Positions 17,941 to 50,630 of a stretch of DNA of 64,000 nucleotides are shown one piece after another. Source of the DNA: Candidatus Hydrogenedens sp. (GTDB taxonomy: Bacteria; Hydrogenedentota; Hydrogenedentia; Hydrogenedentales; Hydrogenedentaceae). The position numbers and the translations under genes are program-made. The stretch spans positions 64,001 to 128,000 of the forward strand of contig JBMFRC010000003.1 of the NCBI GenBank assembly GCA_049968235.1. Direction: 5' to 3'. The stretch's first letter is position 1; each line of letters opens with the position of its first letter. The notes under the pieces are model-generated. The model was not told the origin of the DNA, did no database searches, and saw only the letters and a list, made by a program, of their open reading frames with translations.

Positions 17941-19821
17941 ATGAGTCAAAATATCGAGGGCAATTTAAGTTCGCCAATGGGACAGGCTCTGGTAGACGAA
18001 GGTGTTATCACCGAGGAACAGTTAAGACGGGCTCTACGTATCCAGAGTTTACTGGAACAACCCAGACATCTTAGTGATGTTTTAATTGAATTAGGCTATG
18101 CTACCCGTCAGACAATTAATCAGGCGATTACAAAGCATGGGGGGAATCTTCGTTTAGGGGATTTGTTAATAGAACAAGGAATTATTACACCAGAGGTATT
18201 AAATTCCGCACTGGCTCTTCAAAAGGAACGCGGTATTCGACTTGGGGAGGCTCTTATTGAATTAGGGGCTATTAACGAACGCACATTACTTCGAAATTTG
18301 GCACATCAGATGAGTGTGCCTTTCATTGAACCGGAATTCCCTATGATTGACCCCCGTCTTTTGCAGGGCGTATCTCCGGCATATTTGCGAAAGTATAATT
18401 TTATCCCTTTCTCGAAGGAGGAAGATGGGAGTATTACCGTTGTAGTAAGCGATATTAACAATGACCAGGTTCGGCAGGCTATTCAAGATGTTTTTCAGGG
18501 ACAATTTAATGTGGCGTTAGGACCACAAGATGCTATTCAGGAGTCCATCCAGGCGTTTGAAGAATACCGACGACAGATAACACAGGCCCCTGGTACAGCA
18601 CATGCAGGAGAAGATAATATTATTCAATTGGTAGACCATCTTCTTATAACTGCCATTGAACGCCGTGCTAGTGATATTCATATTGAACCTATGGCGGACA
18701 AAATTAGAATACGCTATCGAATTGACGGCGTATTGGTATATCATACCGACCTACCCCTGACAATGCTACCGCGTCTTATATCCCGTATCAAAATTATGGC
18801 AGGCTGTAATATCACAGAACATCAACGACATCAAGGGGAACGTATTCTTTTTCCATATAAGGGGAAAGATATTGATTTGCGATTATCCATTTATGTTACG
18901 GTATATGGCGAATCCGCAGTTATGCGTGTTTTGAACAGAGATTTGGCTTTGGTAACTCTGGATGAATTGGGGATGAACCGTAGCATGTTGGAGCGTTATC
19001 GCTATGATGTTCTGGACTTGCCCACAGGGGTAGTGCTGATTACCGGACCTACCGGTTCAGGAAAAACGACAACATTATATGCCAGTATTGCCTATTCAAA
19101 TGATGTATCACGAAAAATTATCACTGCGGAAGACCCTGTTGAATTCACTATTGATGGAGTTGTGCAATGTTCCGTTAACGACAAGGTCAATCGCACTTTC
19201 GACTCTACCCTGCGTGAAATTGTGCGTCAGGACCCGGATATAATTGTTATCGGAGAAATCCGGGACCGTGAAACAGCCCAGGTAGCCATTCAGGCTGCAT
19301 TAACCGGGCATAAAGTATATTCGACATTCCATACAGAAGACACCATCGGTGGACTTCTACGTTTGATTGATATGGATATAGAAACTTTCCTCATTTCCTC
19401 AACTGTTATCTCGGTACTGGCTCAACGATTACTCCGTCGCATCTGTCCCAAATGCATTGTCCCTTATATCCCTACTGCAAGAGAGGCACAATCATTGGGA
19501 TTAGACTATGCCGAGGTGCGAGAATATGAATATAAGCGAGGAAAGGGCTGTCAGTATTGTTCATACACGGGTTACCGGGGAAGAGTAGGGGCTTATGAAT
19601 TGCTGGTCCTTAATGAAGATGTGAAGGAAGCAATTCTTCAGAAAAAGACCGCTCACGAAATACGACGAATTAGCGTAGATTCCACAGGACTTATTAGTAT
19701 GCGAGAAGATGCCATTTCAAAAGTCATTCGTGGCACTACTACATACGAAGAAGTCGTTAAACATACACCGCGAACCTTTAATCTGCGTTCCATACGGCAA
19801 ATTATGACTTTATGTTCATAA
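17941..19821 (+). CDS. GspE/PilB family secretion/pilus assembly ATPase with N-terminal tandem MshEN-type (c-di-GMP-binding-like) motifs
   Basis: Walker A GPTGSGKTT; tetra-Cys CPKC...CQYC; N-terminal repeats RLGDLLIEQGIITPEVLNSALALQ and RLGEALIELGAINERTLLRNLAHQ. Confidence 0.85.
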   Translation: MSQNIEGNLSSPMGQALVDEGVITEEQLRRALRIQSLLEQPRHLSDVLIELGYATRQTINQAITKHGGNLRLGDLLIEQGIITPEVLNSALALQKERGIRLGEALIELGAINERTLLRNLAHQMSVPFIEPEFPMIDPRLLQGVSPAYLRKYNFIPFSKEEDGSITVVVSDINNDQVRQAIQDVFQGQFNVALGPQDAIQESIQAFEEYRRQITQAPGTAHAGEDNIIQLVDHLLITAIERRASDIHIEPMADKIRIRYRIDGVLVYHTDLPLTMLPRLISRIKIMAGCNITEHQRHQGERILFPYKGKDIDLRLSIYVTVYGESAVMRVLNRDLALVTLDELGMNRSMLERYRYDVLDLPTGVVLITGPTGSGKTTTLYASIAYSNDVSRKIITAEDPVEFTIDGVVQCSVNDKVNRTFDSTLREIVRQDPDIIVIGEIRDRETAQVAIQAALTGHKVYSTFHTEDTIGGLLRLIDMDIETFLISSTVISVLAQRLLRRICPKCIVPYIPTAREAQSLGLDYAEVREYEYKRGKGCQYCSYTGYRGRVGAYELLVLNEDVKEAILQKKTAHEIRRISVDSTGLISMREDAISKVIRGTTTYEEVVKHTPRTFNLRSIRQIMTLCS

Positions 19822-20923: not shown

Positions 20924-22345
20924 TCAAAACACATGGATCCTTGGCTTTACCCGAATATGTGGAATTACCCTTTCATGTGTATCCATATACCACGCTAACA
21001 GTGCACATCGGTCTGCATCAATAATATGGTCATTCCCTTTCGAATACACATATTGCCCTTGAGCATTTAATACATAGGTGTGATTTGCATATTGTTGCTC
21101 CCGCTCTGCGCTTTTCGGAAATATAATTGTATGCTCCGCTAAACGCCGTTGTAGCAATTCCGTCATCCATTCTTTGGTTCGCCGTTTCTGAAGCACCCCA
21201 TTTGATAACTGCCCCGTTTCTATCATTCCTCCAAATTCGAACGCACAAACTCGATGTTCCCAATCCTTACCTGATGCCATTAATTGATGTGCCACCGCTC
21301 TACCACTATTCCCACAGTCAATCCCTATCTTACAAAAATGATAATGATTATCCAACTCTTGTATCGTCATCTGTTGCTGAACATAGTTTACATTCTCCAG
21401 ATGCATACGCAGTACACAAATCAAATACGGTGGTTCATTTTTAAAAACGATGAATTCAGAAGGGTCTCGCGAAAAGCCTAAATCACAGCCTAAATAATAC
21501 ATCCCCTTTTTTACAGGTTCCGGCAATTCCCATTTTATCTCTGACCCTTTAAGTCGAATCTCATTTGCCGGCAAACTATCATCAACGCAAAGGAGATAAT
21601 CGTCCAGATTAAACACCGCATTCATCGGTTCTCCATGCAATCCCAATACCCGATGTACATATCCTGGACTATCTCTCCCTCCGTACAACAAAGCCAGTTC
21701 AGCATCTTTCTCAGGGATAAAATCCGGATTAAGATAACTGGGCCAGTGATATTGTTCCGCCTCCGGTAAAAAAGTCATACGGTAAAATGTATTCCGAAGC
21801 CCATTCGGTACACCATAAACCCATCGTTTACCCCCACCTTTCAGGGATTGATACAATTCCCCCCAACTTGTTTCTGTCATTTCCTGTGCCTCATCTACAA
21901 TCTGCCAGTCCACATGCATCCCCTGAAAATTTATTCCACGCGGTCCTGCAATCCGACCCCATAGAGTAAATCCATTCACAAATCGTATGAAGTAGGAAGG
22001 GGAACGACGCAATTCTGCAATACCTCCTGCGAATTCCGTCGTTGTTTCAAAACGACGCACCAGTCGATTCATTACCGGGAACAAATGATTTTCACATTGT
22101 GTAGCAATTAACATGGATTTTCCCGGACAATTAACCATAGCCCAGCAGGCTATAATTTCTATTTCCGTCGTTTTCCCTACATCTCTTCCATCACAATGCA
22201 CCTTGCGTAATGCCTGTGATTCCAGAGAATTGCGTTGATAATTGCGAACTCGCCAATGCGTACCATCAACATTATGAAAGAAACGATATGCAAACAATTC
22301 CCGCCGTTGAAGTAACTGAATTAAAGTCTGTTTCAGAACGGACAC
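20924..22345 (-). CDS. phage terminase large subunit-like protein (ATPase + RNaseH-like nuclease)
   Basis: Walker A-like GRDVGKT, Walker B VDWQIVDEAQ, C-terminal acidic nuclease motifs GIDCGNSG and HIIDADRCAL. Confidence 0.6.
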   Translation of the reverse strand: MSVLKQTLIQLLQRRELFAYRFFHNVDGTHWRVRNYQRNSLESQALRKVHCDGRDVGKTTEIEIIACWAMVNCPGKSMLIATQCENHLFPVMNRLVRRFETTTEFAGGIAELRRSPSYFIRFVNGFTLWGRIAGPRGINFQGMHVDWQIVDEAQEMTETSWGELYQSLKGGGKRWVYGVPNGLRNTFYRMTFLPEAEQYHWPSYLNPDFIPEKDAELALLYGGRDSPGYVHRVLGLHGEPMNAVFNLDDYLLCVDDSLPANEIRLKGSEIKWELPEPVKKGMYYLGCDLGFSRDPSEFIVFKNEPPYLICVLRMHLENVNYVQQQMTIQELDNHYHFCKIGIDCGNSGRAVAHQLMASGKDWEHRVCAFEFGGMIETGQLSNGVLQKRRTKEWMTELLQRRLAEHTIIFPKSAEREQQYANHTYVLNAQGQYVYSKGNDHIIDADRCALLAWYMDTHERVIPHIRVKPRIHVF

Positions 22346-22392
22346 ACTACACTCCCCTGAATAAATAAAAATCAGAAATTAAAAAGACGCGA

Positions 22393-22896
22393 TTATTTTC
22401 CCGGTGGATACCACACCTTCACCTTTTTAGTTTGTCTTCCCCAACGCATTGCTTCTTTGTGTTTCTTAAAAAACAGGTCTATACTATTCCCTTTTACAGA
22501 ACCACCACGGTCTTCCACTCTGCCATAACCATAGCCCGGAATATACATAACCGTCCCAAAAGGGAAGCGACTTATATCGGCTGAAATGGTTCCCTTCTTT
22601 GCTTTAACACCACTGGCAGTCACACCTACTTTCTTGGGTTTCCCTTTATTAGGACCATGGGCAACTACCGGACGGAAATACCAATTCCTTTTCCAATTAC
22701 AGCATTTACCACATGGACAATACCCACGCGTTTCTAAAGTTAATATCTCGGAACGAGAACCCGCCTGAGGCTTAAATCGAGATGAAGTTGTAGCACAGCC
22801 CGCAGAAAAAAACAAGAATACTGTTAGCGTTAGTATCAAATATCGTCGAAGCATCTTTTCAATGTTCCTTATCCATTGTTTATTTACTTTAATCAT
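22393..22896 (-). CDS. 3D domain-containing lipoprotein (MltA-like cell-wall binding/hydrolase domain)
   Basis: Lipobox LFFSAGC; 3D-domain pattern ADISRFPFGTVMYIPGYGYGRVEDRGGSVKGNSIDLFF. Confidence 0.65.
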   Translation of the reverse strand: MIKVNKQWIRNIEKMLRRYLILTLTVFLFFSAGCATTSSRFKPQAGSRSEILTLETRGYCPCGKCCNWKRNWYFRPVVAHGPNKGKPKKVGVTASGVKAKKGTISADISRFPFGTVMYIPGYGYGRVEDRGGSVKGNSIDLFFKKHKEAMRWGRQTKKVKVWYPPGK

Positions 22897-22929
22897 ATCC
22901 TTTACTATTCTATCAAATTTGTTGAATGA

Positions 22930-23433
22930 TTAATTATCTTGATTCACAAGAATTTCTTCTTTACTTCCCACGACTAAATTCTTTTGCATCGTTCCATTGC
23001 CTTTCTCCAATTCGTGCATACAACACACCAAATCCTGAACAAGTTCCGCAATACTCATAGAAGATGTTTTTGCTTCCACTGGCTTGATATTTTCAAATTC
23101 CTGCACCAACTTGCGTTGCCGTTCCATATATTTACATAAAATCTCATAATATTGTAAAGAATGGTTTGTCTTTTCTGTTTTTTTGGAAGATTCTATACAC
23201 ACATCTTCCTTTTTAGACATCAGTGGAGATAATAGGAATTCCTGTTCCAGCCTCTGGATAAAAAAAGTGAGTATAAGCAATTCTCGCAAACGCACTTGTA
23301 GCCAAGGTGATATTTCAATTCCATTATTCTGAAACCACACTTGCAGTGCTCTATATTTTTCTCGCCATTGCCGTTTTTCATATGGCGTTAGCCATGCTTC
23401 ACCTTTTTCAATAGAATAAAATATCGAGTCCAT
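22930..23433 (-). CDS. hypothetical protein (position upstream of terminase large subunit; small-terminase-like by position only)
   Basis: Co-oriented with the 3D-domain and terminase genes; no recognisable motif. Confidence 0.35.
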   Translation of the reverse strand: MDSIFYSIEKGEAWLTPYEKRQWREKYRALQVWFQNNGIEISPWLQVRLRELLILTFFIQRLEQEFLLSPLMSKKEDVCIESSKKTEKTNHSLQYYEILCKYMERQRKLVQEFENIKPVEAKTSSMSIAELVQDLVCCMHELEKGNGTMQKNLVVGSKEEILVNQDN

Positions 23434-23792
23434 AAAAATCTCCTATTATCTTTTATTGATATCTCTAAAAATATAGGAAAAAATTTTGCCCTGAAAAGCA
23501 GATAAACCTTTGACATATTTGAAGGAACACTTCCTTGCGATAAGTTATATATGATTTGCAGAAAAAGAATATAAGTCCAACACAATGATATTGAAATTCT
23601 ATTTATTTAGCATGCCAGCGGGATTATGAAACACGATATTTTAACATATATTAATATTATAATGTAATGTAATTGTATGCATACAAATATCACTCATTTA
23701 TAAAAAATAAATATCATATAATAAAGATAGAATAATTTGAATAACTTTACTTTTAATATGTATTTATTATTTAAATAATTATTAAAATTTAC

Positions 23793-23929: not shown

Positions 23930-24940
23930 ATGAGTAAAAAAGGATTCACACTCATCGAATTGCTGGTAGTCATAGCGATTATTGGCATTCTTGCGGCAAT
24001 TCTGTTGCCGGCACTTGCTCGTGCGAGGGAAGCAGCGCGTAGAAGTAGTTGTCAGAACAACCTTAAACAATGGGGACTGGTCTTCAAGATGTATTCCAAT
24101 GAATCGAAAGGAGAACGGTTCCCGCCGATATGTCTTACAGCAGACCAACGAATGAATTGTAATGTCTATCCGTTTACACTGGAAGGTTCCTATGGAATTA
24201 TTGCAGCTGGACCCAATCCGAAAGTCCTTTATCCGGAATATTTAACCGATTTAAATATTATATTCTGTCCTTCGGATTCGGCAGAGAAACCCGGACTTCA
24301 ATTTAATCCTGCAGCACAAGCGGCAGGTGTTGAACTGACAGATGTAAATATCCCGTGTAATGATGCAGTTCGTGGTATGTCTATAATAGATTCCAGTTAT
24401 AACTATGTGGGTTATGTTCTTGACCTCTGTAATGCGGATGGCACAGACCCGTTGACAGATATATCAGGATTGGCAACACTGGTAGGTGCTACAGGAGTTA
24501 CAGGAATGGGACCTGCGCAGTTGGTTGCAGCAATGCTGGTTGTATTACAGGCATACATTAACAACCCTGTAACTGGCGCCCAAAGGGCAGACGAGGACCT
24601 GGATGTAAGTTCATATGCAAATTTAGGAACACCTCCCGGACCTGTAGGTAATGGCAGACAAAATACGATATATCGGCTTCGTGAAGGTATTGAACGTTTC
24701 TTAATTACTGATATTAACAATCCTGCTGCTTCTGCCAAAGCCCAGAGTGAGACATGGATTATGGCGGATACAATCGCAACAGAAGTTGGACATTACAACC
24801 ATATTCCGGGTGGTTCAAATGTCCTCTACATGGATGGTCATGTTGAATTTATGCGTTATCAGGAAACAGGGGAACAGCCGGTTAATGGCGCGGTTGCTCG
24901 TGTCGTAGGACTGATACTAAATTCAGAGAATTTAATATAG
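23930..24940 (+). CDS. DUF1559 / H-X9-DG family prepilin-type N-terminal cleavage/methylation domain protein (type II pseudopilin-like)
   Basis: N-terminus [47 protein letters not shown]; C-terminal [17 protein letters not shown]. Confidence 0.85.
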
Positions 24941-44534: not shown

Positions 44535-45192
44535 TACAACTATTCTGTTTATGCTTTAATAATTAGATGAAAATTTAATATTGATGCTTAAATAATTTAT
44601 CCTATCTATCCTGCCTATTTCATTTTTCCAATCTACCCCCTATCACGAAATAATCCTTACCTGCCTACCACATTTCATTTCTATTCTTTTCGCCAGCGAA
44701 ACACTGATCATACTCCCCAAAACACAAGATAATTGCCAATAATAACCTCCATAACAACAAATCATTCACCCATTCAGATATTTTTATTTATTCCATCACG
44801 ACATTTTCTATACATGCAAAATAATGTATAGGCGAAATATTTTCTCCCCATTCTTGTAATTGTGATTTATTCATTGGCTTTGTGAGGGCATGTGTGTTTG
44901 GGGGATTACAATGATTGGATTCATTATTTGTATGTTCCGATTTTATACCGGACAGATACATACAGGCACATGTAAAACTGAGGATTTATTAGAGCAAATA
45001 ATTATAAGTCCCTCCCAAAAGACACATTTGCCATGCAGGCGGGGTTGGGATGCGACTATAAAAACCGCCCGTCTGGCAAGACTTTCAGTGGAGGTGATGT
45101 AAGGAGGTTGAAGTTTTTTGTTATCAGGTGTTTAAGTTAGGTGGAGGGCAAAGATTGTGCTTTATTTATAGAGGATATTTTTGTAAGAGGGT

Positions 45193-46464
45193 ATGGATAT
45201 GATACGAGGTATTTTTTCGGATTATCGTTGGCGGAACTGGTTTCGGATATTTTTTTCTTCGCGTGAGAATTCGAAGATGAGGTCGAGGTCGGTTTTGCGT
45301 CGTTCTCTTGTTTTCAACGCGCCGAATGGTTATTTACAGGGTTTTGTTCCGCTTCCGGATAATGTTCCCTTTCAGATGTTAGAGGTGTATCGTTATCTTC
45401 GGGATAATATTCCGGATTTGTCTGATGCGGTGTGGACATGGAAACGGTTATGCAATACGGGTTTTAGGCTTTCATGGTCGGAGAGAGTATCGGAATCGTT
45501 AAAACGGGATGGACAGGTAATTATTGAACAGTTGAATCGTCGCATGAATCATGGTGAAGGTGGTTTGACGCATCTGTTGGATATTTTGTATACATCCTTG
45601 TTTACATATGGTGCTTCTGCTATAGAAATTGTATTTTCGCCGCGAGGGAGTCAGATTTATGATGTGGTTCCGGTGGATGTATGGACGGTTCGTTTTCGTT
45701 GGGAGGATGGGGATTGGCAGGCGTATCAGGTGTATGCGGAAGAGGTGATACGGCTCCCTCGCGAACGGTTTGTGTATATTGCTCTGGACCGTGATGGAAC
45801 CAATCCGTATGGTCGTTCTTTATTTCGTTCTCTACCTTTTGTGGTACGGATACAACAGCGGTTAATGGAGGATATGTCTCGTGCTATGCATAATGCGGGT
45901 TGGGCTCGTATGCATGTGCAGTATAAGCCTGAACCGCGTGGGACGGATGAAACGGAGGAGGAGTATCAGAGTCGTTTGGATGCAAATTTAGAGCAGGTGC
46001 GGAATCAGATGAGTAATTTGGGGGTAGACCAGAATGTTGTTACTTTTGATAATATTGGCATATCGGTTGTTCAGGGGGCACAGCGTTTTTCGGCGTATTA
46101 TGAAACACAGCGTGCTATTGAGGAACAAATCATTACGGGTGCGCATATGATGCCTATTTTGTTGGGTCGGAATTATGGGACGACGGAGACTTACGGCACG
46201 GTGCAATATGAAATCATGAATCGACAGGTGGATACCATTAATCAATATTTAGCTCGTGTTCTGGAACGGATATATCGTCTGGAATTGTCGATGCATGGGA
46301 TAGAGGCGGAATTTACTGTGCAACCCCAATCGAATAGCACTGCGGATACGGTTAAAAAATCTTTAATAGAAACGAGACGAATTAATACGCTTCTTCAATT
46401 AGTACAATCGGGAATCATTTCTAAGGAAGATGTGCGTAAGGAAGTAGAAGAGATTTTACATTAG
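45193..46464 (+). CDS. putative phage portal-like protein (first gene of phage-head-like module)
   Basis: 423 aa, Arg-rich N-terminus; position at head of a tightly packed SD-rich operon with a capsid-like gene, M15 peptidase and holin-like gene; no definitive motif. Confidence 0.35.
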   Translation: MDMIRGIFSDYRWRNWFRIFFSSRENSKMRSRSVLRRSLVFNAPNGYLQGFVPLPDNVPFQMLEVYRYLRDNIPDLSDAVWTWKRLCNTGFRLSWSERVSESLKRDGQVIIEQLNRRMNHGEGGLTHLLDILYTSLFTYGASAIEIVFSPRGSQIYDVVPVDVWTVRFRWEDGDWQAYQVYAEEVIRLPRERFVYIALDRDGTNPYGRSLFRSLPFVVRIQQRLMEDMSRAMHNAGWARMHVQYKPEPRGTDETEEEYQSRLDANLEQVRNQMSNLGVDQNVVTFDNIGISVVQGAQRFSAYYETQRAIEEQIITGAHMMPILLGRNYGTTETYGTVQYEIMNRQVDTINQYLARVLERIYRLELSMHGIEAEFTVQPQSNSTADTVKKSLIETRRINTLLQLVQSGIISKEDVRKEVEEILH

Positions 46465-46508: not shown

Positions 46509-47225
46509 ATGGGTATGCTTGAAAGGCTGTGTTTTTGTGAGCGTTTGGGTGAAGTGGTAAACAACCATTCCGGATTTGCTTCTGAGGGATGGGATAGAGA
46601 AGCGGAGTTATCTGAGATTAATCGTTATACTTTGCGGTCGTTAACAGAGGATGAATATGTTGTTTTTACACTGGACCTTTGCCATAATCAGATTGACCGT
46701 CATTTCAGTTGTTTTCCGGAGAATGAACTGGAAGTGATAGATAAGAAGGTGCCGGGCAGACCTTTAATGGAACGGCACGATTTAAGGGGATCTCTACCGC
46801 GAGGGACTTTTTTCTATTCCCGTCTTCATCGGCAGGGAGATGTTCTATCGGTTCGACCTAAGGTTTATGTATTGAGATTGGAGGAGAATCGGAATTTCAT
46901 TGCCAATATTGAGGGAGGTATTTACAGGGAAACTTCCATTGGTTTTTCTTTTTTATTTCCGGAATGTTCCATTTGTGGTCGTGATATACGGCGCTGTGTG
47001 CATGTTCCTGGTGAGAAATATGAGGGTTCTCTGTGTTTTTATCGTATGCGGGGTGTTCAGGATGTATTGGAGGGGTCTGTGGTAGCGTGTGGTTCACAGG
47101 GCACTTCGTTTGTATCAGATGTGCGAGCACACATATTAGAGCAATTTGGTGAAAAGGGAGGGATTCTGCTTCAACGGAGTTATTTTGGTGGGATGGATAA
47201 AAATAAGGCATGGTGTAAGGAATAG
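46509..47225 (+). CDS. hypothetical Cys-rich protein (position of head maturation protease/scaffold)
   Basis: SD GAGGAGG; CFCERLGE and CSICGRDIRRCVH clusters; no clear catalytic motif. Confidence 0.3.
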   Translation: MGMLERLCFCERLGEVVNNHSGFASEGWDREAELSEINRYTLRSLTEDEYVVFTLDLCHNQIDRHFSCFPENELEVIDKKVPGRPLMERHDLRGSLPRGTFFYSRLHRQGDVLSVRPKVYVLRLEENRNFIANIEGGIYRETSIGFSFLFPECSICGRDIRRCVHVPGEKYEGSLCFYRMRGVQDVLEGSVVACGSQGTSFVSDVRAHILEQFGEKGGILLQRSYFGGMDKNKAWCKE

Positions 47226-47273: not shown

Positions 47274-47471
47274 ATGCTCAGACCATCCACGGTAGCCAGG
47301 CGGAGAAGTAAGTATGATGCGATAAATAATTTATGTGAAGATGTAAGCGAATTGCGGGAGCGTATTTTGCGGTTGGAGCAGTCGTTATTTCGTGGGCTAT
47401 GGCTTTTGATAGCCAATCTGCTTGGGGTTGTGTTTTCTTTAATACAACAGGGGATATTTTTAAACCATTGA
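47274..47471 (+). CDS. small protein with coiled-coil N-terminus and hydrophobic C-terminus
   Basis: SD GAGGAGG 6 nt upstream; ELRERILRLEQSLF then LWLLIANLLGVVFSLI. Confidence 0.3.
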   Translation: MLRPSTVARRRSKYDAINNLCEDVSELRERILRLEQSLFRGLWLLIANLLGVVFSLIQQGIFLNH

Positions 47472-47488: not shown

Positions 47489-48214
47489 ATGTTTTGCAGG
47501 ATGATAGAGCATCAAGGAGAAATCCCTGTGGATGTTCCGCTTCATTCCGAAGGTCGTTTTGTGGTTCATGCGCATAAGGACCGGCAGGGTCATCATCTTG
47601 ACTTGCGGATAGAACAGAGGGGCTATCTTCTTGGCTGGCGAATTGATGATACCGAATTACGAAGTGAACTTTGGGGAACGGAGAAACTTCCTCATGACTT
47701 TTCGTGGCTGGATGAGGAAAGACCGGAGGGAACAGGAGTTACGGGTGATTATCGCTGGTTCAGTCAGGGTGATGGAAATGGTTATCTGAATTTGCGGATG
47801 AGTAATAATGAGCAACGCACATATCGTGTGGAGCGATGGGGCGGTTTTTCCATTCGTTTTCAGCGGGCATTGTGGCAAAGTATGCGGAAGTGGCAATTAT
47901 CGCCTTTACAGGTTCTTTCTGTTGTAGAAGATGGGATTAATGCCCGTGAATACGCAATTCGGCGGATATGTGGTTTAGGCAGGTTTCTTGAAGGGGAAAA
48001 TTTTGATGCATCCCAATGGGAAAAGGTTTTATTGCGGTGTTCGTTAAATGAAATCTATGCCCATTTAAGGAAATGGGAAAACCGTCTGGAAAGTCAAAAC
48101 CCACCCCAAAGAATTTCACAGCCGGAAAAGGTTGATGAAGTTTGTGTAGAAAAAGGGAATTTACGAACAAAGCCTGACCTGTTAAATTTAGTGCGTGGTC
48201 AGGGGAAAGTATAA
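47489..48214 (+). CDS. LigD 3'-phosphoesterase (PE) domain-like protein with C-terminal extension
   Basis: SD GGAGGTGG; RFVVHAHKDRQGHHLDLRIEQRGYLLGWRI and KLPHDFSWLDEE match the LigD-PE motifs HxH..H.D.R.E / DHP.DY as recalled. Confidence 0.4.
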   Translation: MFCRMIEHQGEIPVDVPLHSEGRFVVHAHKDRQGHHLDLRIEQRGYLLGWRIDDTELRSELWGTEKLPHDFSWLDEERPEGTGVTGDYRWFSQGDGNGYLNLRMSNNEQRTYRVERWGGFSIRFQRALWQSMRKWQLSPLQVLSVVEDGINAREYAIRRICGLGRFLEGENFDASQWEKVLLRCSLNEIYAHLRKWENRLESQNPPQRISQPEKVDEVCVEKGNLRTKPDLLNLVRGQGKV

Positions 48215-48242: not shown

Positions 48243-48623
48243 ATGGCATTTGGAGATATTGGTGGGACATATACCGAGTTGATTATTACATGTAGCACAC
48301 CAGAAACGGGACCTGTAAGTATCCGTCGTGGTGATGCACTGAAACTTATCGGAGGGTATGTGGTAACGAATACTTTTACCGGAGAGGATGTCATTTTCGG
48401 GCAGGCAATGAATGATTGTAATGTGAATGATACCGCTATCCCTGTAAAGGTGCGAGGTATATGCATTTTTGAGTATGAGGGAGTTCCGCCCACAGTAAAT
48501 GGAGTGCAAGGGATTGCGGGTTCGACTACTCCGGGTAAAGTGAAAGCACCTGCGTCCGGGAATGGTTCTGGCAGGGTAGTGAAAACAGAATCTTCTATAA
48601 ATCGGGTCCATGTATTGCTTTAA
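48243..48623 (+). CDS. small Gly/Val-rich protein (DUF2190 / head-decoration-like by size and composition)
   Basis: SD AAAGGAGG; 126 aa; GGYVVTNTF..GQA...VKVRGICIFEYEG..NGVQGIAG. Confidence 0.3.
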   Translation: MAFGDIGGTYTELIITCSTPETGPVSIRRGDALKLIGGYVVTNTFTGEDVIFGQAMNDCNVNDTAIPVKVRGICIFEYEGVPPTVNGVQGIAGSTTPGKVKAPASGNGSGRVVKTESSINRVHVLL

Positions 48624-48640: not shown

Positions 48641-49690
48641 ATGATGTTATCCATGCAGACAAAATTGACAGAACAGATGCAGTTTCTGTCACAGCCCAAA
48701 GAGAAATTATTATCCATACGCGGGAAGGAATTGTATGAGACATTAAATTCTTTAGGTCTAACCCATACTCAATTTTTCCGTGCTATTGGGACAGATATTG
48801 AGGAATATTGTGCTCGTGAGTTTGGTGTTGATTTATACCAGATTACGGTGGAGCGTTTTTTCCAGACAGACCCTAATGCGAAATGGCTTTTTCCGGACCT
48901 GGTTCGAGAGTCGGTTATTTCAGGGATGACGGGGAAGCCTGTATATTCACAATTGATAATTCGGGATGAGCGTATAGAGAGTGCGGTCTATGATGTGCCA
49001 TATGTTAAGGAGTCGGAGGAAGAGGAAGAACTACGGAATGTCGGCGAAGGAGCGGTTATTCCGGAATCGGAAATAAGGTACGGGAATCGAATTATCCAGT
49101 TACAAAAATTGGGGCGTGGCATTTTAGCGTCGTATGAGGTTATCCGCCGTATGTCTGTGGATATGTTGCGGGTTCATCTTCGTCGGATGGGTGAATGTCT
49201 TGGCAGAAATCTGGATAAACGGCTTGCGTATGTGCTGGCTTATGGGGATATGTCTGGGGAAACAAGTCCGGATGTGCTGAATACGGAGACTGCTAATATA
49301 TGGAAATATACAGACCTCGTCCGTGCTTTCTTGCATTTAACTACGAAGAATTTTTTTCATCCGACGCATCTGCTTGCGAACTCCGATACGATGGAAAAGA
49401 TAATGTCGTTGCCGGAGATTACCGATTCTGCATTGTTTGATTTTGCGAAATCGGGCAATTTGCCGACACCTTTGGGAGTAAAATTGGTGCCCATGTCTGA
49501 CCATCCGGAAAATTGTTTTACTTTACTGGATTCTCGCTATGCAGTCCAGAAGTTAACGGAACAAGATGTGCTTGTAGAAAGTGACCGCCTGATACATCAA
49601 CAATGGGACCGTAGTTATCTTACGGTGGTAACAGATTTCGCCATTATTTATCGAAAGGCGCGTGTGGTTATGCGTTGTGACTGGAGTTAA
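48641..49690 (+). CDS. putative major capsid-like protein
   Basis: SD AAGGAGG; 349 aa; follows the decoration-like gene in canonical head-gene order; no confirmable motif. Confidence 0.3.
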   Translation: MMLSMQTKLTEQMQFLSQPKEKLLSIRGKELYETLNSLGLTHTQFFRAIGTDIEEYCAREFGVDLYQITVERFFQTDPNAKWLFPDLVRESVISGMTGKPVYSQLIIRDERIESAVYDVPYVKESEEEEELRNVGEGAVIPESEIRYGNRIIQLQKLGRGILASYEVIRRMSVDMLRVHLRRMGECLGRNLDKRLAYVLAYGDMSGETSPDVLNTETANIWKYTDLVRAFLHLTTKNFFHPTHLLANSDTMEKIMSLPEITDSALFDFAKSGNLPTPLGVKLVPMSDHPENCFTLLDSRYAVQKLTEQDVLVESDRLIHQQWDRSYLTVVTDFAIIYRKARVVMRCDWS

Positions 49691-49766: not shown

Positions 49767-50237
49767 ATGAGGGATAGAAATAATGTGCATCTTGCTATTG
49801 AATTCGATGGAAGATGGCTAATAACCCACTTTAATTTGAAAGAGTTTGAGAATAAAAAGGGCTGGGTGATGATACACCGTTCGGTGATTATTTCTCTGAC
49901 AAAAATTCGCGAAGAACTGGGTCGATACTTTGGTGAAGAAGTGGAAATTGTAATAACTGATTCAACACGCACACCTGAGCAATTGCAAGTTTTAGGTGAA
50001 AAATTGGGCTGGATTGATGAAGGTGGTGTAGTTGCACGAAATTCAAAGCATCTGGAAGAATTTGGAGGGATTGCGGTGGATTTCTATGTGCGGTTTAAGC
50101 AAAGCAAGAAACGGATAGATTCATCGACTATTGAAACGATATGTAAAAAGTATTTTGATTATGTTAAATCGGATTATGCGGATGGGCATATTCATGCGGA
50201 TAATCGAGAACATATAACCAACACATGCAAGAAATAA
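49767..50237 (+). CDS. peptidase M15A-like (hedgehog/DD-peptidase fold; endolysin-like)
   Basis: SD AGGA then ATG (MRDRNN); motif ITDSTRTPEQLQVLGEKLG...NSKHLEEFGGIAVDF fits SxHxxGxAxD; later GHIHADNREH. Confidence 0.5.
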   Translation: MRDRNNVHLAIEFDGRWLITHFNLKEFENKKGWVMIHRSVIISLTKIREELGRYFGEEVEIVITDSTRTPEQLQVLGEKLGWIDEGGVVARNSKHLEEFGGIAVDFYVRFKQSKKRIDSSTIETICKKYFDYVKSDYADGHIHADNREHITNTCKK

Positions 50238-50252
50238 GGAGGCGGAAATAGG

Positions 50253-50630
50253 ATGATTCTCAGTATACCTATGTTAGACCAATTTCTTTTTTATTTGATA
50301 ACTGGTGTGTTCGGATGCATCTGGGCAGTTATGCGTGTTTATGAGATTTACCAGCAAATTAAAAATTCACGGTATCGCCTGGCACTAACAATAATTGAAA
50401 GTGCGGTGCAGAAGACTTATGATACCTATACACGGGAGATAAAGAAGGCACGCGAAGACGGAAAATTAACACCGGAAGAACGAAAAAAGGCGTTTGAATT
50501 GGCAATGCAAACCGCTTTAGAGATGGCACGAGGGGAAAATATAGAATTGTATAAGATTCTACGGAAGGAACTTCTACCTTACTTTATTCATAATGCATTG
50601 CAGAAATTGAAGTTGCGAAGAGCCAGGTAA
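50253..50630 (+). CDS. small membrane protein, holin-like
   Basis: SD AAGGAGG; single N-terminal TM FLFYLITGVFGCIWAVM then charged cytoplasmic tail; follows the peptidase gene. Confidence 0.35.
   Translation: MILSIPMLDQFLFYLITGVFGCIWAVMRVYEIYQQIKNSRYRLALTIIESAVQKTYDTYTREIKKAREDGKLTPEERKKAFELAMQTALEMARGENIELYKILRKELLPYFIHNALQKLKLRRAR

Follow-up and report, generated by a model that had tools for sequence, protein, structure and literature searches.

The window analysed here, a 64-kb stretch of Candidatus Hydrogenedens DNA, carries at positions 20924-23433 of its minus strand a compact operon of three co-oriented open reading frames (ORFs), separated by intergenic gaps of 33 and 47 nt, that encode a small all-helical protein, a lipoprotein with a 3D domain of the MltA type and a large terminase subunit (TerL). 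An earlier reading of the sequence had picked out this operon as a TerL-like ATPase/nuclease gene lying with a 3D lipoprotein and a small upstream ORF. All three ORFs were recovered as this original prediction describes them, and the four motifs it lists (GRDVGKT, VDWQIVDEAQ, GIDCGNSG and HIIDADRCAL) are all found in the TerL translation. The small protein is 100% identical to one from a Candidatus Hydrogenedens sp. metagenome-assembled genome. As the original prediction also states, no phage genes adjoin the operon, and housekeeping genes separate TerL from a second phage-type module encoding portal and capsid proteins, the head module. The operon's neighbours are genes for an HDOD protein and a PilB-like ATPase at one end and for a DUF1559 pseudopilin and a transketolase-like protein at the other. 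The two modules are 22.8 kb apart, and the interval holds genes for tRNA-Gly, tRNA-Lys, ExbB/ExbD, TPR and VWA proteins, a GHMP kinase and DegT, together with Rho, PolA, LpxB, a GFO-family oxidoreductase, LpxA and a PLD enzyme. Neither integrase nor replication genes turned up in the flanks within the window or in the seven relatives' loci with gene or Pfam tables, and no regulatory or att-like features adjoin either module in the window or in the relatives' loci with gene tables. The features of both modules are collected in Table 1.

Table 1. Genes and promoter-like motifs of the terminase operon and the head module (window coordinates).
Feature	Position	Strand	Assignment or remark
TerL, 473 aa, GTG start	20924..22345	-	phrog_2; N-terminal ATPase and putative C-terminal nuclease
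3D-domain (MltA-type) lipoprotein, 167 aa	22393..22896	-	PF06725, phrog_22529; predicted peptidoglycan-cleaving enzyme, periplasmic
Small all-helical protein, 167 aa	22930..23433	-	candidate small terminase or TerL partner
Promoter-like motif GGCAAA-N15-TTTAGAG	23463..23490	-	30-57 nt 5' of the small-protein ATG
Second promoter-like motif GGCAAA-N14-TATAGAG	45147..45173	+	20-46 nt 5' of the portal ATG
Portal	45193..46464	+	phrog_3753, E=6e-51; PF06074 Portal_Mu, E=2e-10
phrog_16951-family head-module protein	46509..47225	+	phrog_16951, E=6e-32
Small 65-aa protein	47274..47471	+	hydrophobic, probably membrane-spanning C-terminal segment (by eye)
Protein of about 241 aa in scaffold/maturation position	47489..48214	+	named by position only
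126-aa virion or decoration-like protein	48243..48623	+	phrog_4588, E=1e-3
Major capsid protein (HK97 fold family)	48641..49690	+	phrog_3922, E=4e-45; PF25209
c167, 156-aa conserved terminal gene	49767..50237	+	invariant His and Asp residues
d122, 125-aa conserved terminal gene	50253..50630	+	holin-like; phrog_13712 holin, E=4e-5

TerL matches the PHROG family phrog_2 ('terminase large subunit', E=3e-21) over residues 34-465, and a profile of its family matches the ATPase domain of the Thermus phage P74-26 TerL in the PDB (4zni, E=1e-3); no Pfam or NCBIfam model detects it. In an alignment of 35 sequences, picked to span the family's 60-90% identity range and with a mean column identity of 72%, the Walker A residues G53-R-D-V-G-K58-T and the Walker B residues D151-E152 are invariant, as are D288, D343, D439, D443 and D445 in the nuclease region, which the phrog_2 match spans. 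The closest match to TerL among 50,697 deposited phage genomes is only 26% identical, and most public copies with a source name are annotated 'hypothetical protein'.

The operon could be set against its chromosomal neighbours in the relative L054, which is syntenic over the order tkt, pilin, small protein, 3D, TerL, HDOD, PilB, FGGY, cydBA. Between the window and L054, the ratio of non-synonymous to synonymous substitution rates (dN/dS) is 0.04-0.06 for TerL (dS about 1.0), 0.05-0.07 for the 3D protein (dS 0.5-0.7) and 0.14-0.18 for the small protein (dS 0.7-0.9), as compared with 0.03-0.06 (dS 0.6-1.0) for the flanking genes tkt, HDOD, PilB, FGGY and cydAB. By these values the operon has diverged in step with its neighbours under constraint of a housekeeping level and is neither a pseudogene nor a relic in decay. 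The head genes were compared with those of L053, where synonymous sites are saturated and dN alone is usable; non-synonymous change in them proceeds at the rate of the host flanks. By these measures TerL is intact, apparently complete in its catalytic residues and evolving like the adjacent housekeeping genes, which answers the question of purifying selection that the original prediction raised.

The conservation extends across a phylum. When each GTDB species was represented by one genome, a scan found TerL in 45 distinct genomes, mostly labelled Hydrogenedentota, at 58-83% identity, with one locus in each. At the level of 90%-identity clusters TerL has 454 homologous clusters, and the best 120 of these 454 are all 63-90% identical to it. 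The capsid protein has a similar distribution, with at least 120 clusters of 62-91% identity and a near-constant length of about 349 aa. Source-named homologues of both proteins come nearly all from metagenome-assembled genomes (MAGs) of Hydrogenedentes or Hydrogenedentota. Among these 45 species-level genomes and more than 120 clusters there is no sign that TerL is variably present. Some MAGs with TerL carry other labels, namely Nitrospirales, Nitrospiraceae, Latescibacterota or Armatimonadota (L004, L006, L013, L019, L020, L027 and L031); their TerLs are 60-67% identical to that of the window, some share neighbour genes with Hydrogenedentota loci, and they are probably mis-binned or mis-labelled Hydrogenedentota. 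More distant orphan TerLs also lie among host genes at L098:9343-11503 (51% identity) and L100:2240-4667 (46%), so the domesticated system may reach beyond the core clade. The context of the former comprises an extracytoplasmic function (ECF) sigma factor, type II secretion genes, glycosyltransferases and ksgA, and this TerL retains its small-protein partner.

Several genomes bring TerL and the head module together. Among 2.9 million IMG/VR contigs, an alignment-based scan found a sole relative, L046 (IMGVR_UViG_3300023246_000327), in which TerL (38% identity), portal (31%) and a phrog_16951 protein (34%) are contiguous; an IMG/VR scan with a single protein found no relative. One unrelated gene lies between TerL and the same portal/head module in L015, L034 (a complete chromosome) and L020, and TerL directly follows the head module in L051. 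The pairwise identities of TerL, portal and capsid protein moreover co-vary between genomes. This adjacency, contiguous in one viral contig and close in four other genomes, together with the co-varying identities, shows that both modules go back to a single phage lineage, a relationship that the original prediction had proposed to check.

The separation seen in the window is also characteristic. TerL lies within the analysed DNA of none of 43 metagenomic head-module loci (at most 10 kb on each side, with many contigs shorter), and a portal gene is near TerL in 2 of the 13 TerL loci with full flanks. As judged from these loci, the split of TerL from the head module is the norm and the two are contiguous in a minority of genomes. 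The host genes around the modules differ from genome to genome: in the close relative L047 the capsid gene and the terminase operon have rplJ and rplL between them, an AlwI restriction-modification system and the phosphotransferase system protein EIIA flank the terminase operon in L049, and the head module of L052 is bordered by lptE and holA.

A promoter-like motif, GGCAAA-N(14-15)-T(A/T)TAGAG, links the two modules. Searching the 64 kb with the pattern GGCAAAN{10,16}TWTAGAG returned two matches, one per module and each correctly oriented, against a chance expectation of 0.08; two matches were reached in 1 of 100 shuffles. The terminase-side motif recurs at the corresponding site of L054, L001 and L002, and also of L047, where its downstream half is degenerate; the orthologous portal-side site in L053 (L053:6515-6541) reads GGCAAAATATCCCCCTTATTTATAGAG. 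A high-GC form, (A/G)GTGCAAC(A/G)-N12-14-TA.A.(G/A)G, lies 5' of the small-protein and portal genes in many loci; as GTGCAAC-N12-14-TA... it precedes the portal gene in L020, L034, L059, L068, L069 and L071. Counted across loci with a loose regular expression, the motif occurs 5' of the small-protein gene in 13 of 29 loci and of the portal gene in 6 of 25, over a background of 0.6% per 150 nt. It precedes the 3D gene in 3 of 30 loci and the phrog_16951, decoration-like and 173-aa genes in one locus each, and was counted 0 times 5' of the genes for TerL, the small membrane protein, the scaffold-position protein, the capsid protein, the adaptor-like protein, the distal-tail protein (Dit), the 579-aa protein, c167 and d122. 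Where the portal and small-protein genes are divergent, in L020 (4708-4828), two 38-nt copies of the motif face each other and are 92% identical. Its presence at both modules, across lineages of very different base composition, supports their common regulation by way of this putative promoter. A generic scan for sigma-70 promoters and terminators over 20.5-24.2 kb gave site counts not above those of shuffled sequence.

The 3D lipoprotein sets the terminase operon apart. Its 3D domain matches Pfam PF06725 above the gathering threshold (E=8e-14), and its closest profile is phrog_22529 (E=4e-22), a phage family without known function. The signal of the window protein ends in ...FFSAGC-ATT, and the lipobox G-C-A, called from sequence and conservation, is kept in at least 90% of 29 orthologues; the Asp-containing 3D motifs AAD, VED and xD are conserved across 29 loci. 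Like the 3D-domain or MltA-like enzymes of the SpsC, YuiC and EntA-D types (PF06725), the protein has a C-terminal 3D domain with conserved Asp motifs. Unlike them, it is short (167 aa), lipoprotein-anchored and equipped with a CxC...CC cysteine cluster, and its gene sits between those of the terminase partner and TerL. This arrangement holds in 29 of 45 loci, and the small protein, 3D lipoprotein and TerL travel as a unit while neighbouring genes change. Retention of the 3D gene in the packaging operon despite repeated rearrangement argues that the lipoprotein works with the element, and release of particles through the cell wall would be its simplest role. An esterase of the BD-FAE or alpha-beta-hydrolase type is found recurrently on the opposite strand, between the 3D gene and TerL or adjoining TerL (L034:7966-9276 (-), L051:15287-16201 (-) and many high-GC loci).

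The small protein lies 5' of TerL in 26 of 45 loci, and in about 9 of these its gene adjoins TerL directly, without an intervening 3D gene. Its family is all-helical and conserves the motifs RERLRKAxKELE and GTPxDxGLAD, and an AlphaFold2 model from 14 sequences has five helices with a predicted local distance difference test score (pLDDT) of 69. In the outgroup L098 a homologue (hhalign probability 97%, E=1e-10) directly precedes the 51%-identical TerL. Such a place before TerL, extending to the outgroup, and such linkage are what one would expect of a small terminase, and on these grounds we regard the protein as a candidate small terminase or TerL partner. A profile search of the PDB returned designed helical bundles only, Pfam scans of 22 members gave nothing consistent, and Foldseek searches of the model against PDB and BFVD returned no match better than E of about 0.6, with the HK97 small terminase (TerS) at E=3-5. 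No similarity was detected by hhalign to the 254-aa protein 5' of TerL in L046.

The head module begins with the portal gene, followed by the phrog_16951 gene in every locus examined and in the viral contig L046. The 65-aa protein is kept at the same position in L053, L101 and most high-GC loci, and its L052 orthologue has a weak holin match (E=0.027). The ORF in scaffold position is listed from 47399, with a likely true start at 47489; its product has no family match in Pfam, PHROG or NCBIfam, yet is conserved in all head modules. Its stretch 'RFVVHAHKDRQGHHLDLRIE..GYLLGWRI' presumably resembles a LigD phosphoesterase-domain signature, a likeness that no Pfam match confirms. The L052 orthologue of the decoration-like protein matches phrog_4588 at E=6e-10. 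Pfam and NCBIfam return nothing for the small protein or for most head proteins.

Two conserved genes close the module. One, c167, stands at the module end in many low-GC and high-GC loci and was undetected in about one-third of high-GC loci. Its invariant motifs, S-x-H...G-G-x-A-x-D and G-H-x-H-x-D, we take to resemble those of M15-type zinc D,D- or L,D-peptidases, an assumption confirmed by no tool: a PDB profile search and a Pfam scan of 12 members gave nothing, and a single-sequence AlphaFold2 model (pLDDT 59) had no Foldseek match. A LytTR match was weak, confined to one member and discounted. The other, d122, has a hydrophobic N-terminal segment that by eye is probably membrane-spanning. 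No PADLOC model matches TerL, the 3D protein, the small protein, the portal, the capsid protein, c167 or d122.

Most of the phylum has a longer head module than the window. The usual order is portal, phrog_16951, often a gene of about 550 aa, the small protein with a hydrophobic C terminus, scaffold-position, decoration-like, capsid, a 138-aa adaptor-like protein, Dit (phrog_33, E=6e-12), a 579-aa protein, a 173-aa protein, c167 and d122, with lptE and holA among the host genes on one flank and thioredoxin and asd among those on the opposite flank. A low-GC clade is without tail-tip genes at this position: the window, L053 and L047 run from capsid to c167 to d122, and L101 (L101:5906-7201) retains the adaptor-like gene after the capsid gene and is without the Dit, 579-aa and 173-aa genes. 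The tail-tip genes thus appear to drop out stepwise in the low-GC clade, by apparent loss or relocation, and a scan of metagenomes with the 579-aa family returned high-GC loci only. Many high-GC head modules also have an extra 1.2-2.5 kb between the phrog_16951 and small membrane-protein genes. The product of this stretch in L070 (L070:4619-6280) is a protein of 553 aa, rich in Gly, Ala and Ser and with a hydrophobic segment at its N terminus, and could be a fibre or spike; similar stretches occur in L058, L061, L068, L075-L081 and others, and are absent from the window and L052.

Taken together, we consider it probable that the operon is the packaging part of a phage-derived, vertically inherited particle system, resembling gene transfer agents (GTAs), that is fixed in the Hydrogenedentota chromosome. 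A multi-locus layout, resemblance to remnant phages and vertical inheritance are hallmarks of GTAs (PMC11841831). As in GTAs of the RcGTA type in Alphaproteobacteria, BaGTA in Bartonella, VSH-1 in Brachyspira, Dd1 in Desulfovibrio and VTA in Methanococcus, phage-derived head and packaging genes are present without replication or integration genes. Also as in GTAs, the genes appear chromosomally fixed, vertically inherited and under purifying selection, are spread over more than one locus and have the look of a remnant prophage (PMC11841831). The original prediction had offered two readings, a dispersed organisation of the GTA kind and a pair of independent prophage relics, and every one of its proposed checks that can be run in silico favours the first.

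In its genes the system differs from known GTAs. RcGTA has a head-tail cluster of TerS, TerL, portal, protease, capsid, tube, tape measure, hub and megatron genes, so that its TerL sits in the main cluster and not, as here, in a separate operon. Compared with RcGTA by family assignment and gene content, the system shows no specific sequence relationship to RcGTA genes: the portal here is Mu-like (PF06074, phrog_3753), the capsid protein belongs to PF25209 Phage_capsid_4 (phrog_3922), with PF04860 below cut-off, and no locus has a tube or tape-measure gene. Membership of the RcGTA family was rejected on these grounds, namely the differing portal and capsid families and the absent tail genes. 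Further departures from known GTAs are the 3D lipoprotein in the packaging operon and the host, an uncultivated phylum. Tailed phages provide a second comparison: TerL has the ATPase and putative nuclease motifs of their terminase modules, and the order TerL, portal, phrog_16951 is shared by L046, L015 and L034. The likeness to deposited tailed phages such as Microcystis phage MACPNOA1 and Thermus phage P74-26 (TerL) is distant, at most 26% identity to any. Compared with the viral contig L046, TerL is 38-41% identical and the 254-aa gene 5' of the L046 TerL is unrelated to the small protein; unlike in tailed phages, the bacterial copies occur without the rest of a phage genome.

These comparisons suggest what looks like an independently domesticated, previously undescribed GTA-like element in a new phylum. 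Its unusual traits, as read from the genes, would be a separate terminase operon with a cell-wall lipoprotein, a promoter-like motif shared between modules and a lineage-specific absence of the tail tip. A literature search found no paper that ties Hydrogenedentes or Hydrogenedentota to terminase, capsid or GTA in this sense.

We envisage that a dedicated regulator or sigma factor would fire both promoters, and that a procapsid would be built from the portal, scaffold-position, decoration and capsid proteins. TerL, with the small helical protein serving as its partner in the manner of a small terminase, would cut DNA and pump it through the portal. The 3D lipoprotein would then open the cell wall, possibly helped by c167 as a peptidase and by the holin-like d122, leading to particle release or possibly to the passage of DNA. 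Where the module also encodes the adaptor-like, Dit, 579-aa and 173-aa proteins, as it does across most of the phylum, these four would form a short tail tip.

Several points weigh against a GTA-like system. It is known here from its genes alone, with particles, packaged DNA and transfer as predictions, and the part that the 3D protein, c167 and d122 play in lysis is putative. The genome scan, which works via exact peptide words, reaches close relatives only. The small-terminase identity of the small protein finds no support in sequence or structure searches (PDB, Pfam and Foldseek), and the motif was defined post hoc on related, non-independent loci, so that its p-values are indicative only. 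The window's module has none of the adaptor-like, Dit, 579-aa and 173-aa genes, nor do homologues of them occur within the 64 kb, and a delivery apparatus is therefore not evident in this lineage; tail tube, tape-measure and sheath genes were seen in no locus examined.

The missing tail gives some weight to a domesticated particle with a role other than transfer, such as a PBSX-like killer that packages host DNA without delivering it productively, a means of releasing DNA or forming biofilm, or, in the window's lineage, a tail-less DNA-filled capsid with another cellular role. The evidence for domestication would apply equally to such a particle, the capsid and packaging genes are strongly constrained despite the missing tail, no locus has a full tail, and the module of the low-GC clade is without tail-tip genes apart from the adaptor-like gene of L101. 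However, the Dit, 579-aa and 173-aa genes that most of the phylum has imply some structure for adsorption or delivery, and the tail genes of the window genome may simply sit elsewhere. Sequence analysis does not separate such a particle from a GTA, and we rate it as possible, if rather unlikely. We are similarly tentative about a bolder version of domestication, in which an ancient, phylum-wide and independently domesticated capsid system has its own regulon, marked by the shared promoter-like motif, and the Hydrogenedens lineage of the window shed the whole tail tip while keeping portal, capsid, terminase and the terminase-linked cell-wall lipoprotein under selection of a housekeeping level. 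This would leave a tail-less DNA-packaging capsid whose cellular role would not be tail-mediated transfer in the classical sense.

A mobile element that is still active and widespread in Hydrogenedentota, whether a temperate phage or a satellite resembling capsid-forming phage-inducible chromosomal islands (PICIs), with modules that happen to be interrupted by host genes, would account for the fact that all the genes are of phage type, for the true viral relative L046 and for the contiguity of TerL and head genes in some genomes. Capsid-forming PICIs and phage satellites likewise combine head and packaging genes with an incomplete tail. Unlike capsid-forming PICIs, neither module here has an integrase, alpA or replication genes beside it, and regulatory and att-like features are likewise missing beside the modules in the loci examined. 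Unlike in phage satellites, TerL has the same dS as the host genes flanking it in syntenic genomes, and many Hydrogenedentota genomes carry the element's genes. Between the modules lie ribosomal-protein, polA, rho and lpx genes, the 45 loci come from 45 genome records with one locus per genome, and the family is nearly absent from IMG/VR and from deposited phages. An active mobile element is on this evidence improbable. Two independent decaying prophage relics, brought together in the window by chance, would explain the 22.8 kb of housekeeping genes between the modules but are rejected as very improbable, given intact ORFs with dN/dS of 0.04-0.18 and invariant active-site residues, conservation across the 45 species-level genomes, the TerL/head pair that co-occurs in other genomes and one viral contig, and the same promoter-like motif 5' of both modules.

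The GTA-like system that we favour was picked out by comparative genomics alone, in an uncultivated phylum and from genes that are almost all annotated 'hypothetical protein', with a TerL invisible to Pfam and NCBIfam. To our knowledge, few independent GTA lineages have been described, all of them found experimentally. A 2024 review stresses that sequence does not yet allow GTAs to be recognised and that how common they really are is still an open question (PMC11841831). If confirmed, the system would add a deep, phylum-level domestication event and provide a clean case for which phage genes survive taming, namely terminase, portal, capsid and a cell-wall enzyme, with a seemingly optional tail tip. 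It would also offer a concrete promoter motif for tracing the controlling regulator. Virome studies would mistake such loci for prophages, and where DNA of Hydrogenedentota appears in the virus-like-particle fraction of a digester or sediment, it could be misread as contamination.

Two further observations concern the chromosomal setting. The operon adjoins genes resembling those of type II secretion or type IV pili, in the window (17941-19821 and 23930-24940) and also in the outgroup (L098:2091-7891). The PilB-like ATPase and DUF1559 pseudopilin families can be multi-copy, a second DUF1559 pilin is present in L054, and this neighbourhood may be a coincidence. The cumulative GC skew of the window reaches its minimum at about 44.5-45.2 kb; the change of sign there coincides with the switch from minus-strand genes (polA through PLD) to the plus-strand head module and spans the 650-nt AT-rich intergenic region before that module.

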